Virus record (IMG/VR): IMGVR_UViG_3300034062_004313
Span: 32,001-96,000 of that record
Direction: 5' to 3' (one strand)
Source: a virus
Length of the DNA stretch: 64,000 bases
Shown here: piece after piece, positions 3,342 through 46,670 of the stretch
Position numbering within the stretch: the stretch's first letter is position 1
Layout: each line of letters begins with the position of its first letter
Translations under genes and position numbers: made by a program
Notes under the pieces: generated by a model
What the model saw: the letters and a program-made list of their open reading frames with translations, nothing else
Database searches by the model: none
Told to the model about the DNA's origin: nothing

Positions 3342-3866
3342 AATTTTAATTTATTGTAATTGTTTTTTCTTCTATTTTTTGTTCTATAATTTCTGCTATT
3401 TCTTCAAAAGATACCCCTTCATCATTTTTATTAGCTAAATCCATCCATTCAACATTTCCTATTAGTTCATCAAATAAGCTGTAATTATATCTTTTACCAT
3501 CTAATAACATATAATCATCAGGGTCAGACTGGGAGGCAAAAGAGCAATATGGTTCAAATCCATTAATTTTAGCCCATACACCTAAACAGCAAAATCCTTT
3601 ATTATCTGTAAGAGTTCCTTGACATTGTTGATAATCTCCACTGCGTAGAGCTTGTATCCATTCTTTTTTATTTACTGATACTTTCATAAATTAAATTGTG
3701 AAATTTTCTTGTATTTCTTTTTTAATATCTACTAATTGATTTATTAAATCTTCTAAATCTTCTAAATCATCTAATCTAATGATAAATTTATTAAAATCTA
3801 ATAATATAGATTTATTTATTAAATCTCCATCTTTATCATACTCATTTACTGAAAATAATATTTCTT

Positions 3867-21510: not shown

Positions 21511-22695
21511 TTATTTTTTAGCATCATATCCAAGTGACATGTACTTGCAGGAAAAGTTATGATTTTCATCTCTAATAACTATACCTTCTACCATATTATC
21601 TCTGAAGTAAGTTTCACATTCTTCTTTAATTTCTTCAATAGTGTTAAAAGTCTTATCGAAAACCAAATCTGTTATAGGAACATTTAATTCTGTAGTAATT
21701 CTTTTAAACTCTTCTTCTCCAAGCTTTATAGATTGGTCTTCATATTTACAAACATTAAAGAATTTAATTCCTACAGGAAGTTTAGCATGTGGATTGTTCT
21801 TGTTACCACTTCCTTTCATGTTTTGACCATAAATTTCACCCTGAAGTACTATGTTGACATTGTTTTTCTTACAATAAGATTCTAATAAATCAAGATATTT
21901 CATTCCATGTTTAACAAAATCACTGTCATTAGGTACTTCTTCGTAGAAATTTAAATCAGGCTTAGTCCAAAATAACACTTTTTCTAAGAAAGTTTTATTA
22001 CGTCTTCCTGTAACCTTTTTTGTAGATAGTGGTTTACCTTGATTACGAGAAGCAATTCCTTTTTTACCATCTTTATACCACTCTGTTATAGAGCTACCAT
22101 CAATTTTAACACGACCAATAAGTCTTTTAGGAAGAATCTTCTCAAAATGTTTAACTACATTATTAAAATTCTCTTCATCTGTTTTAACTACTCCATCTGG
22201 AAATTTAGTAGAGGCTCCACCTTTAATTCCAGCACCAGATTTATCATCAGGTTCTTCATATTTAGTAATTCCTAATTCTTGTGCTAAATCTAAAGTAGTT
22301 AAAGGTAGATTATGACCATGAGCAGTCATTCCTGTATAATCTTGAACTTCTTTATATTGTAATAATATACCATTACTATACACTGGAAATCCATCTCCAC
22401 GATGTAAATTAAACTTCTTAGCACGAATACGTCTTGGTAATCCATTTGTTTTTCCTAACATACTCTTGCTTTCATCTCCATTAGGACGAATGAACGATTC
22501 GAATAGTGGAATATCTGAAACACAATAATCAGGAAATATTAATACTGCTTTATCTCCAACTTTATAAATATCTTTTTGACTAACTAATTCATATCCAAAC
22601 TCTTCAATAGTGAGCAACTCTATCGAGTTGGCTTGTTCTTCTCCTTTAAATAAGGGAATCTTTTCTTTTATTATAACAATTTGTACGGCTTCCAT
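21511..22695 (-). CDS. ATP-dependent RNA ligase, DRB0094/Rnl5-like, with N-terminal OB domain
   Basis: KVGDKAV in the N-domain; motif I KIDGSS; ASRN; LQGEIYG; KFFNV; EGIVIR; CKYMS. Confidence 0.85.
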   Translation of the reverse strand: MEAVQIVIIKEKIPLFKGEEQANSIELLTIEEFGYELVSQKDIYKVGDKAVLIFPDYCVSDIPLFESFIRPNGDESKSMLGKTNGLPRRIRAKKFNLHRGDGFPVYSNGILLQYKEVQDYTGMTAHGHNLPLTTLDLAQELGITKYEEPDDKSGAGIKGGASTKFPDGVVKTDEENFNNVVKHFEKILPKRLIGRVKIDGSSITEWYKDGKKGIASRNQGKPLSTKKVTGRRNKTFLEKVLFWTKPDLNFYEEVPNDSDFVKHGMKYLDLLESYCKKNNVNIVLQGEIYGQNMKGSGNKNNPHAKLPVGIKFFNVCKYEDQSIKLGEEEFKRITTELNVPITDLVFDKTFNTIEEIKEECETYFRDNMVEGIVIRDENHNFSCKYMSLGYDAKK

Positions 22696-43343: not shown

Positions 43344-43949
43344 ATGATATATTTTATAGGAAACAAAGAACAAGATATAGTTAAGATAGGAAAAACTAAA
43401 AATGTTGAAAATAGACTTTGGGAAATAAATACTCACTGTCCTTATAAATGTGAGTTATTCTTAACTATAGATGGAAAAGAAGCTATTGAAAAAACAATAC
43501 ATGAAATGTTTAATCAATTTAAAATGAACGGTGAATGGTTTCAATTTTCAACTGAAATTCAAGATTTTATAAATAATCCAAAAGAAATAGTATTAAATCC
43601 TTTGTTTAAAGATTTTAATATAAATACTTCATATTATAATAATGAAGACTTAAAAATCGTTGAAGATTTATACAAATTGAAAAAATCCAATATTGAAATC
43701 TCTGAAATAACAGGATTAACTATACATCAAGTTAGAAGAATTATAAGAAATAATCAACTTGCTAGAAAATATAGAGAATATAAAGGAACAACTATTGTTA
43801 GTTCAGAACAAGACTTTCAAAGAAATAAGCGTAAAAAGTATAGAACTCTTTATAAAAAAGGGATAATTACTAAAGAAGTATTATTAGAAGAACTTGCAAA
43901 ATATCCAACTAAACGTAATTGTCCCAAAAATACAATTGAATATACCTAA
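43344..43949 (+). CDS. T5orf172/GIY-YIG-like nuclease with C-terminal HTH (putative free-standing homing endonuclease)
   Basis: MIYFI, VKIGKT, RL..I, EKTIH, GEWF; HTH SNIEISEITGLTIHQVRRII; lone plus-strand gene in a minus-strand region. Confidence 0.8.
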   Translation: MIYFIGNKEQDIVKIGKTKNVENRLWEINTHCPYKCELFLTIDGKEAIEKTIHEMFNQFKMNGEWFQFSTEIQDFINNPKEIVLNPLFKDFNINTSYYNNEDLKIVEDLYKLKKSNIEISEITGLTIHQVRRIIRNNQLARKYREYKGTTIVSSEQDFQRNKRKKYRTLYKKGIITKEVLLEELAKYPTKRNCPKNTIEYT

Positions 43950-44066: not shown

Positions 44067-44360
44067 TCAATCTTTAAAATAATCTTTTACTAAATCTCTA
44101 CCTGAATAATCTTGTCTTGAACAAGCATCATCTAAAATGTCATTTGGGCAATTTTCACAAAGCTTAGAAACAAGCTCCATATTCTTGTTACACAAATCTG
44201 ACCACAATACATACAAGTTTGTTCCCTTTAAAGAAGGAACCTGTTCCAACTTAATAGCAATTGGAATACTGTATTTTAAGTTTTCAGGAGAGAACAATTC
44301 CATAAGAAATGTCATTGCAACTGGATTTCCTTTTGCATAATTCATAATCATACCAATCAT
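44067..44360 (-). CDS. conserved phage hypothetical protein (likely start at 44360)
   Basis: YAKGNPVAMTFL...LKGTNLYVLWSDLC; the ORF-track extension to 44402 overlaps the ribozyme. Confidence 0.7.
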   Translation of the reverse strand: MIGMIMNYAKGNPVAMTFLMELFSPENLKYSIPIAIKLEQVPSLKGTNLYVLWSDLCNKNMELVSKLCENCPNDILDDACSRQDYSGRDLVKDYFKD

Positions 44361-44374
44361 AATAATAATTTTTG

Positions 44375-44443
44375 AGTTTGACATCATTAATGTTTCGTCC
44401 AAGTCTGGTCACAAACTGATTTTATACTCTTCTTGGCTGAGTT
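44375..44443 (-). ncRNA. hammerhead ribozyme, type I, G3:C8 variant with kissing loop
   Basis: AGUUU-GUGACCA-G(ACUUGGA)C-GAAAC-AUU AAU GAU-GUC^AAACU; upstream ACUC(AGCCAAGAA)GAGU loop is complementary to loop II. Confidence 0.7.
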
Positions 44444-44557
44444 TATAGTCTTGTCTAATGGAACATTAAAGACTTAAACAAGGCTGCTAATCCATCAATA
44501 ATATATGCATTACTGTCATAGTTATTAATATAGCACTTACAGCACCTTGTTGATTAA

Positions 44558-44794
44558 CTAAAGACCTAAATAATCCAATTGTTCTTGAGTAACTCCTGTT
44601 GCTTTAGCATATTCAGCTAAAGTTATTTCTTCACAAGAAATGATAGGACATGTCTCTACAATAGGAAATTCATCTTCTGCAATTGGGTCATAATACCAAT
44701 CTATATTAACATCAATAGATGTTAAATTAGGTGTAGTAGAATAATGAATAAAAGGCATTCCATGCTCTTCATGTATATATTTAAAGAATTGCAT
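44558..44794 (-). CDS. small acidic hypothetical protein (likely start MQFFKY)
   Basis: ORF track; start reassigned because the upstream part is structured RNA. Confidence 0.6.
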   Translation of the reverse strand: MQFFKYIHEEHGMPFIHYSTTPNLTSIDVNIDWYYDPIAEDEFPIVETCPIISCEEITLAEYAKATGVTQEQLDYLGL

Positions 44795-44903
44795 AATAAG
44801 TGTGATGCTGATTAGACAACATCGATTTATTAACAAATTAATAAAATTCTCTAACCTTATTACAGGAATTACAGAGAATACCATTACGGATGTGGAATGA
44901 CAA

Positions 44904-44981
44904 CTATTGCCAATCCCACTCTTGCAGTCCTTCTAAGGTGGTTACACCAATAGAAGTAATAATCAAAGCAGTATGTTTCAT
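44904..44981 (-). CDS. possible 25-aa peptide MKHTALIITSIGVTTLEGLQEWDWQ
   Basis: A-rich leader (AAUAAAAGC-AUG); stop codon in the loop of a hairpin. Confidence 0.3.
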   Translation of the reverse strand: MKHTALIITSIGVTTLEGLQEWDWQ

Positions 44982-45037
44982 GCTTTTATTATTTAGTAAT
45001 GAAGAAATCTCCCTGTTAACGTACAGAGAATAAAACG

Positions 45038-45256
45038 TTATTTACCTTTGAAGTCTTCATCAAAACTACTATCAAATAAACATCCTAATGCAACACATAT
45101 TACTATTGTTCCCAACACACAATAAGCAGGATGTTGAGCCACTTCTCTGAAGCTGCCACCAAATAATCATGCAATAGCAGGAACAATCGAATACAAGAAA
45201 CAGTAGCATATAACGTATACCACTGTAAGAACCATAAAACGGATTAACTTTTCCAT
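45038..45256 (-). pseudogene. 72-codon two-TM membrane protein ORF interrupted by one in-frame TGA (45167-45169)
   Basis: MEKLIRFMVLTVVYVICYCFLYSIVPAIA*LFGGSFREVAQHPAYCVLGTIVICVALGCLFDSSFDEDFKGK. Confidence 0.55.
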
Positions 45257-45343
45257 AACAGATAAATATTTAAAGAATGAATAAACATAGAAAAGCATAT
45301 ACACAAGTCCTTGACAGGAGAGTGTATATGCCCTGTGAATAAA

Positions 45344-45733
45344 TTACAACGGAAACTTAAACTTAAACCAACCAAAGGACTTAGCTCTAATAAAACATTG
45401 AGCTATACTAATATGTTCACAAGATTCATCTCTGAAACCTGTAATATGATTATCAACACCTTGTTCAGGTTTTATAGTAGTATAACCAACTTTTCGAACA
45501 TATCCACCACCATGTTTCTGTTCTACAATAAATGTAGTACCAACAGGAGATGTGAGAATATTAAAGAGATTCTTACTCTGAAAAGAATAAGTGTGGTCTT
45601 TAACATAATCAGAATTACTTAAAGAACGCTCTTCAATAGGACAATTATAATCTACATGAATAGAATAATACTTATCAATAACCTTATTGGCTTGATTAGC
45701 ACTAAGCTGAATACAGGAAATGAACTTTTCCAT
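45344..45733 (-). CDS. hypothetical protein (likely start MEKFISC)
   Basis: ORF track; A-rich leader directly after the hammerhead. Confidence 0.65.
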   Translation of the reverse strand: MEKFISCIQLSANQANKVIDKYYSIHVDYNCPIEERSLSNSDYVKDHTYSFQSKNLFNILTSPVGTTFIVEQKHGGGYVRKVGYTTIKPEQGVDNHITGFRDESCEHISIAQCFIRAKSFGWFKFKFPL

Positions 45734-45752
45734 TTTAAATATTTTATTGTTT

Positions 45753-45808
45753 TCTGTTTCGATGCTCAATTACATCATCATCAGCAAAGAGAATACTCTT
45801 TGGACAGA
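45753..45808 (-). ncRNA. hammerhead ribozyme, type III
   Basis: UCUGUC^CAAAGAG-UAUU-CUCUUUG-CUGAUGA-U-GAUG-UAAUUGAG-CAUC-GAAA-CAGA; all three stems pair. Confidence 0.88.
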
Positions 45809-45921
45809 TTAGCATATACTGCGGTTTCAACATGGGAATATGATGTCAAAATGATATTGTTTTGATATCAAATGAGTGATTCTATACCCTATTTGTACTC
45901 ATGTCAGTGCAAATTTGTACT

Positions 45922-45937
45922 TGTTTCACGTGGAACA
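45922..45937. promoter_or_regulatory. parS-like site (ParB/Spo0J binding)
   Basis: TGTTTCACGTGGAACA, 15/16 to the palindromic consensus TGTTTCACGTGAAACA; intergenic. Confidence 0.75.
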
Positions 45938-46023
45938 TTATATAATATCTACATGTATTAATACACTATTTATTAGATATTATCTAATTCAATTTAAAAT
46001 ATGCCGAGAAAATACAAAACCAA

Positions 46024-46068
46024 TTTGATATTATTCAACAATTGTTCATATTATTGAATAATATCAAA
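46024..46068. repeat. perfect 15-bp inverted repeat
   Basis: tttgatattattcaa-N15-ttgaataatatcaaa. Confidence 0.85.
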
Positions 46069-46104
46069 ATTAAGCTCTTTTTATGGGTGGATTTGGGCTG
46101 ATTT

Positions 46105-46134
46105 AAAAAAGGACAGGGATAAATATCCCCGTCC
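46105..46134 (-). terminator. intrinsic terminator after 46158..46670
   Basis: GGACGGGGAU-AUUU-AUCCCUGUCC-UUUUUU. Confidence 0.85.
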
Positions 46135-46157: not shown

Positions 46158-46670
46158 TTAAGGAGTCGGAACTGCATTCTCCTGCAATTCAGCAGTGGCA
46201 GTCACTTTCTTTTCCTTCTTTTCAGGAGTTACACCAGCCAAAGCTTGTGTCAAAGCAGTGATACCGGCAAGGTATTGGTCAGCCCTTTGCTTTTGAAGGT
46301 TACGTCCACGGCCTTTAAATGGGACATTTGTCAGCCACACATTAGGTGAGCGTGTCATTTTGCCAGCAGAATCGAACTGTGGTTTTGCCACATCGAACTT
46401 CATAGCACCTTCATACTTGCCTGTGGCATCATCATAACCCTTCAGGAATTCTTCAAATTCATCTTCACTGATGCGTACTTCTGTACTTTTTACCGGAATC
46501 CTTACGCCTGTAGGAGAAATATAATTCTCACTTGTAGCTTCCACCTCTTCACTGAGGATAAGAATTACGGTGTCTGCATTTACACCTGATTGAGTGTCAA
46601 TAGTTTCCACTTCAATTGTGGTCTTCCTCATACGGGACAAACCTGCTAATAGCTCATGTTTAATAGCCAT
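46158..46670 (-). CDS. hypothetical protein, GC-enriched, probably early/highly expressed
   Basis: 170-aa ORF flanked by terminators on both sides. Confidence 0.75.
   Translation of the reverse strand: MAIKHELLAGLSRMRKTTIEVETIDTQSGVNADTVILILSEEVEATSENYISPTGVRIPVKSTEVRISEDEFEEFLKGYDDATGKYEGAMKFDVAKPQFDSAGKMTRSPNVWLTNVPFKGRGRNLQKQRADQYLAGITALTQALAGVTPEKKEKKVTATAELQENAVPTP

Follow-up and report, generated by a model that had tools for sequence, protein, structure and literature searches.

Two conserved hammerhead ribozyme motifs precede start codons in a freshwater crAss-like phage

Introduction

[quoted passage not shown] The role proposed in that study was the processing of long phage transcripts; circular or spliced products were also considered and looked for, but were not detected. 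A 2019 review treats the role of self-cleaving ribozymes in phages as still open, a processing role having also been proposed in print (PMC6765202). In the RAGATH-1 type of hammerhead (Rfam RF03152), the loop of a 5' hairpin pairs with the loop of a 1-bp stem II, and the motif further contains an AUAAAAU linker, an open stem I, GAAAC, a stem III hairpin and GUC. Engineered insulators such as RiboJ carry a hammerhead between promoter and start codon, which trims a variable leader and stays on the message as a 5' hairpin. Type III hammerheads of viroids and satellites have an open stem III and closed stems I and II, with a loop 1 that starts with U and a hexaloop 2 that ends with A, the two bases forming a loop-loop contact (PMC2632901).

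We analyzed a stretch of 64,000 nucleotides (the window) that covers bases 32001-96000 of IMG/VR virus record IMGVR_UViG_3300034062_004313. A first-pass annotation had marked two co-oriented hammerheads around a multi-gene segment, taken as a candidate self-excising and possibly circular mRNA, and knew of no phage system with such a layout. The layout has been described (Perreault et al., 2011; PMC3088659), and the locus is not a new kind of system. Like the prophage clusters, it has several co-oriented hammerheads of mixed types in gene gaps, flanking single genes or short blocks of non-constant identity. Unlike them, it lies in a lytic-type 156-kb crAss-like freshwater phage, one of its hammerheads has an inserted U, and the other has a G3:C8 swap in the core. 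The reading that we prefer, with a probability of about 60%, is that these are two independent genuine hammerheads, each acting as a cis processing site in a leader or gene gap.

Results

Genome and locus

The record is 155,874 bp long and is rated complete. The source genome is that of a freshwater crAss-like phage of lytic type, with a GC content of 27-33%. It contains portal and terminase genes, and the terminase shares ~24% identity with its counterparts in Flavobacterium phage FpV4 and gut crAss-like phages. Freshwater metagenomes have yielded contigs of the same phage, whose DNA is present in JGI samples 3300020530 and 3300002835. No close relatives were found in IMG/VR with ORF1, the gene downstream of the ribozymes or the terminase as query, nor among named phages by blastn. 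Genes run on the minus strand up to ~48.3 kb of the window and on the plus strand beyond, and the ribozyme region lies within a block of small unknown genes adjoining this strand switch. It is because of this position that the ribozyme transcript may be early. Just downstream of the ribozyme region, a T5orf172/MUG113 gene (GIY-YIG-like, homing-endonuclease-like; window 43344-43949) lies on the plus strand between minus-strand genes. The phage also encodes an Rnl2-type RNA ligase (PF09414, phrog_968; window 21511-22695, minus strand), and a search of its genome for RtcB found none.

Both hammerheads of the first-pass annotation are present at the predicted sites on the minus strand, which is the coding strand here, as judged from their sequences and from family and Rfam evidence (Table 1). 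The layout between them was also borne out: the segment from 45802 to 44380 is 1,423 nt long and holds the four ORFs named in the annotation and several hairpins.

Table 1. Features in and around the ribozyme region (window coordinates).
Feature	Position	Strand	Remarks
Upstream terminator-like hairpin	46111-46134	minus	Intrinsic-terminator-like; ends upstream gene 46158-46670; -17.6 kcal/mol, z -5.3
Non-coding region upstream of HH-up	45812-46110		~300 nt; palindromes and promoter-like site
HH-up	45753-45808	minus	Type III hammerhead; cut between 45803 and 45802
ORF1	45344-45733	minus	129 aa, unknown function; nine homologues, 63-100% identity
Terminator-like hairpin	45293-45334	minus	Followed by UUUUCU; between the ribozymes, right after ORF1
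Hydrophobic ORF	45038-45256	minus	72 codons; in-frame TGA at 45167-45169; from translation
Short ORF	44904-44981	minus	25 codons; called gene (3753-3830) in L010, a JGI contig of the same phage
78-aa ORF	44558-44794	minus	Unknown function; gene call
HH-down	44375-44443	minus	RAGATH-1-type (type I) hammerhead; cut between 44380 and 44379
Downstream gene	44067-44357	minus	96 aa; large conserved phage family, at least 133 homologues

Neither ORF1 nor the 78-aa ORF matched a Pfam or PHROG family. For the ORF broken by TGA, no homologue was found among the fetched related loci and no suppressor tRNA among the 19 tRNAs of the phage; read-through, recoding or two short ORFs are possible. The family alignment of the 96-aa downstream protein places its start at the ATG at 44357. 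A 105-aa database version would start at an ATG inside HH-down (44358-44384, minus strand) and span the cut; it was rejected because the alignment favors 44357.

The hairpin that follows ORF1 has 13 bp and a U-tract, with a folding energy of -20.8 kcal/mol (z -5.86) that none of 200 shuffles equaled. If it terminates transcription, the two ribozymes are on different RNAs. Upstream of HH-up, the palindromic word GATATTAT/ATAATATC occurs several times in the non-coding region, among others as a 19-nt inverted repeat at 46024-46068. The region also has a direct repeat ATTTGTACT and one sigma-70-like site at 45879-45907 on the minus strand. It looks like an operator and promoter region. Because this DNA with its palindromes and sigma-70-like site follows an upstream terminator, HH-up probably lies in the leader of a new unit.

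HH-up is a type III hammerhead with an inserted U

HH-up has a stem III of UCUGU/ACAGA with GUC, a stem I of 7 bp closed by the loop UAUU, and a stem II of 5 bp closed by the loop AAUUGA and followed by GAAA. A single extra U, between A9 and G10.1, follows the core sequence CUGAUGA, and all hammerhead core positions are present (C3 U4 G5 A6 N7 G8 A9, G12 A13 A14, A15.1-U16.1 and H17). The three-way junction is also the minimum-energy fold (-14.6 kcal/mol, z -2.6). A descriptor scan of the whole genome found HH-up as the only type III candidate. Among 200 order-2 Markov genomes, none had a candidate with stems of 7, 5 and 4 bp, and two had one with 16 bp in total as in HH-up.

Viroid work indicates that such a core insertion is tolerated. 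The CChMVd (+) hammerhead, in work of De la Pena and Flores from 2001, is said to have an extra base between A9 and G10.1, the place of the insertion in HH-up. From this and from its strict conservation in the HH-up family, we take the inserted U to be tolerated. HH-up also shares the stem arrangement and the two contact bases of the viroid and satellite hammerheads. It is unlike them in being encoded by a DNA phage before protein genes, in having a loop 1 of just 4 nt, and in going unmatched by the Rfam type III model RF00008.

The Rfam searches deserve some comment. RF00008 gave no match to HH-up even on a 101-nt query at E-values up to 10, nor did it find HH-up in a genome-wide search, and the window had no Rfam match at the gathering score. 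Genome-wide at E-values up to 0.05, no ribozyme family other than that of HH-down was matched; tRNAs were matched as well. The result with RF00008 suggests an insensitive model rather than an absent motif, since two type III candidates with canonical cores in a related contig likewise went unreported by Rfam at E-values up to 1. These two (L007:7881-7960 and L007:8874-8937) lie in gene gaps and were found by descriptor scan only; the second scored just 21.9 bits with our model R1. The curated type III model thus seems to under-detect phage hammerheads of the HH-up group.

At least 25 distinct type III hammerheads make up the family of HH-up, in which the extra U after A9 is invariant in 25 members and the loops UAUU and AAUUGA are fixed. 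Metagenome contigs were searched with a pattern that consisted only of the core plus U, loop 2 and GAAAC; UCUGUC and loop 1, which are common to the family, were absent from the pattern. More than 119 stretches matched, of which 24 are full hammerheads distinct from one another, many of them located on environmental contigs from JGI (Ga-prefixed). The remaining matches, mainly stretches of human-gut crAssphages, lack stems I and III and are apparently coding; they were rejected as chance matches, as were a few others that also lack the stems. The crAssphage stretch is conserved in many human-gut contigs of 94-98 kb (within L081-L192) and matches the core and loop 2 pattern exactly. In an assumed frame it would read LMMEELNSETMI if coding, and it is a trap for ribozyme searches that rely on a pattern only.

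The alignment of the 25 sequences has 98.1% of its pair cells paired, compared with 73.8% in shuffles, a paired fraction that is inflated because the members were chosen partly by pairing. Changes on both sides were found in 13 of 17 pairs, and the covariation score was 0.70 versus 0.22. Slid registers pair at 36-47%, so that neither shuffles nor slid registers approach the real values. A covariance model (R2) built from 23 relatives, with the HH-up of the window left out, scored HH-up at 82.1 bits (E 4e-21) and found it as the sole copy in the genome. A direct comparison is offered by an orthologue in front of an ORF1 homologue with 68% protein identity (L023). There the loops, core, extra U and stem III are unchanged, whereas every one of the seven pairs of stem I and two of the pairs of stem II have been replaced by other base pairs. 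Throughout the family, the first base of loop 1 is always U and the last base of hexaloop 2 is always A, the same two bases as in the published contact (PMC2632901). The strong purifying selection on catalytic core, loops and pairing indicates that the activity of the RNA has been kept. Judged by sequence and conservation, HH-up is a genuine hammerhead.

HH-down is a RAGATH-1-type hammerhead with a swapped core pair

HH-down matched RF03152 over its full length (1-77) with 52.5 bits, below the gathering cut-off of 56.3, and with E-values of 6e-6 over the window and 4e-9 over the genome. All parts of the RAGATH-1 architecture can be recognized, from the 5' hairpin, whose loop forms a CCAAG/CUUGG pseudoknot with the loop of the 1-bp stem II, through the AUAAAAU linker, stem I and GAAAC to stem III and GUC. 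Apart from its score, HH-down differs from RAGATH-1 by one extra base before stem I and by its core, which is GUGACCA instead of CUGAUGA. This core has the substitutions C3G, U7C and G8C, so that C3:G8 is swapped to G3:C8 and Watson-Crick pairing is kept.

Canonical relatives help to place this variant. A canonical copy from another phage (L065), which scores 69.2 bits, is identical to HH-down over its first 27 nt and in GACUUGGACGAAAC and differs from it in stems I and III; a further relative (L066) forms its pseudoknot from GCUUG/CAAGC. Covariation of both pseudoknot and hairpin is seen in L065, L066 and 12 further copies from IMG/VR. Among 13 aligned copies of the HH-down type, four of the five pseudoknot pairs and two of the four hairpin pairs show changes on both sides, and the copy in the window fits this pattern. 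Positions 3 and 8 are C:G in 12 of the 13 distinct copies and G:C only in HH-down. Scans of IMG/VR with exact patterns found no further copy with the swapped core, compared with 15 canonical ones. The swap itself has a precedent in full pairwise mutagenesis, where C3G+G8C alone among the double mutants of the CUGA-turn part of the core rescued activity (PMC9901934), and a natural U3:A8 covariation has been reported (Perreault et al., 2011; PMC3088659). By its architecture and covarying pairs, HH-down is a true hammerhead.

Its activity may nevertheless be reduced or lost, given the score below the cut-off, the weak stems, the fold and its standing as the sole G3:C8 copy among 13. The stems are short and A-U rich, and the minimum-energy fold of HH-down alone is not a hammerhead and is no better than that of shuffles (z -0.24). 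HH-down could accordingly be seen as a decaying relic, inactivated by the three core substitutions and the weak stems, in which case only HH-up would work and nothing would be bracketed. The rarity of the core in the alignment and in IMG/VR fits such decay, but the essential bases at all other positions of the core are intact, and so are the 5-bp pseudoknot, GUC, the 5' hairpin and both stem I and stem III. Moreover, any base is allowed at position 7, positions 3 and 8 have regained a Watson-Crick pair in the form of the active double mutant, and HH-down is identical in the three independent contigs of the same phage that reach it (L009-L011). We therefore regard a relic as unlikely and favor a second working processing site.

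Ribozymes occupy a fixed place before start codons

Relative to start codons, the two motifs have similar positions. Between the end of HH-up and the ATG of ORF1 there are 19 nt, and the cut of HH-up lies 69 nt before this start codon; HH-down ends 17 nt before the ATG at 44357, with its cut 22 nt before it. In 17 of 26 copies of the HH-up family (25 in related contigs and the one in the window), 16-36 nt separate the end of the motif from an ATG with which an ORF begins, and the motif often lies 12-50 nt past the preceding stop codon. The first-pass annotation treated the two ribozymes as a coupled pair. Their different architectures, the position of each ~20 nt before its own start codon, and the other ribozyme classes carried by ORF1 orthologues speak against such coupling.

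The genes that follow the family members are unrelated between contigs, and only L023 shares ORF1. Conversely, other ORF1 homologues have other elements: one is preceded by a pistol-like element (L022; 26.4 bits, P1 loop complementary to the junction), and another lies between an upstream hammerhead of type I and a downstream pistol-like element (L008). Since ORF1 homologues have differing ribozymes and the cargo is unrelated, what stays constant is a site for cutting ahead of a start codon, and not the ribozyme, its partner or its cargo.

This exchange of genes and ribozymes could also be explained if the ribozymes mainly mark the borders of exchangeable DNA gene modules, either traveling with small accessory genes or as recombination scars of these, with RNA cutting secondary. 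The endonuclease-like T5orf172/MUG113 gene on the opposite strand just downstream would suit such traffic. Mere borders, however, would not account for the strong purifying selection on core, loops and pairing, and the fixed spacing to start codons indicates a role at the RNA level. Module borders are an improbable main function.

Ribozyme pairs in relatives and the question of a circle

In the window and in relatives, at least two co-oriented self-cleaving ribozyme motifs lie in gene gaps within a few kb, as in clustered phage ribozymes. Co-oriented pairs or arrays were found in L007 (two type III, 973 nt apart), L008, L159 (hammerhead and twister-P1), L161 and L187 (two family members ~440 nt apart in each), G024 (three) and G026 (two). 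The first-pass annotation had asked whether related phages keep paired ribozymes around orthologous genes; among the relatives compared, neither the partners nor the enclosed genes are conserved.

Several RNA elements were observed beside family members. In L161 (595-1034) and L187 (884-1320), RNA with no plus-strand ORF longer than 31 aa lies between two members of the HH-up family that have the same stem III. The flanked stretch is 86-89% identical between the contigs, has a fold z of -4.2, and recurs in part beside a hammerhead in L100; it is a candidate non-coding RNA released by ribozymes. A partial match to GOLLD RNA (L167:1959-2355; 105 bits, cut-off 150, E 1e-26) lies ~1.6 kb downstream of a family hammerhead on the same strand. 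The twister-P1 match in L159 (934-1000, minus strand; 61.4 bits, cut-off 67.2, E 2e-11) is ~800 nt downstream of a family hammerhead, also on the same strand.

Hammerhead cleavage leaves 5'-OH and 2',3'-cyclic phosphate ends, which fit the ligase RtcB. Read-through RNA of the window could in principle be cut by both co-oriented ribozymes and the 1,423-nt piece circularized by a host RtcB-type ligase. The first-pass annotation added that the ligated junction would rebuild a hammerhead. A 3-bp stem III could indeed form there, but the complementarity is trivial, since both sites read UGUC and, GUC being nearly universal, have just one further base in common; the two ribozymes also differ in type. 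Such a circle is highly improbable: a terminator-like hairpin lies between the sites, no RtcB was found in the phage, whose RNA ligase is Rnl2-type, although the host may have one, the architectures of the ribozymes are unrelated and each ribozyme goes with a start codon of its own, partners and enclosed genes vary among relatives, and Perreault et al. (PMC3088659) sought circular products of such arrays without detecting any. Circles with a rebuilt hammerhead would be more plausible for the ~440-nt RNA of L161 and L187, whose geometry is that of a viroid-like monomer, yet for the phage group as a whole host ligation of hammerhead-bounded RNAs is just as improbable. If it did occur, the circles would be a DNA-phage-encoded counterpart of viroid-like or retrozyme circles.

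Discussion

As far as comparison of sequences can tell, the two motifs are conserved as hammerheads, and so is their placement relative to start codons. As two independent processing sites, they would act on their messages in different ways. HH-up would cut in the leader of ORF1, whose message would keep it at the 5' end in the form of two hairpins. HH-down would stay on the 3' end of the upstream RNA, and the message of the downstream gene would keep a 22-nt unstructured leader with a 5'-OH. Each gene would thereby gain a fixed 5' end, whatever was transcribed upstream, and the stability or translation of each message would probably change. We infer that both motifs cut in vivo and that this affects expression in a host of the Bacteroidota type. 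The 1,423-nt segment would then be a by-product of two nearby sites and not an excised unit.

The annotated self-processing of the transcript into defined pieces is in part upheld by these results. Processing is the natural reading of two true hammerheads, and it is plausible and already published; a single 1,423-nt unit does not agree with the hairpin between the sites or with the other ribozyme classes at the orthologous slot. RiboJ-type insulators resemble the phage elements in having a hammerhead in a 5' leader, but RiboJ is a synthetic device and the shared purpose is an analogy.

Three points are new: Rfam misses a type III subfamily with an inserted U, a G3:C8 swap occurs naturally, and one ribozyme class can replace another at an orthologous slot. 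Because the subfamily escapes the curated model, such elements are probably under-counted in crAss-like and freshwater phages. HH-down provides a natural G3:C8 version of a tertiary core pair for which Perreault et al. (2011) reported natural U3:A8. Together with the spacing of ~20 nt to the start codon, the class exchange and the other new points make a message 5' end that is set by a ribozyme a directly testable idea.
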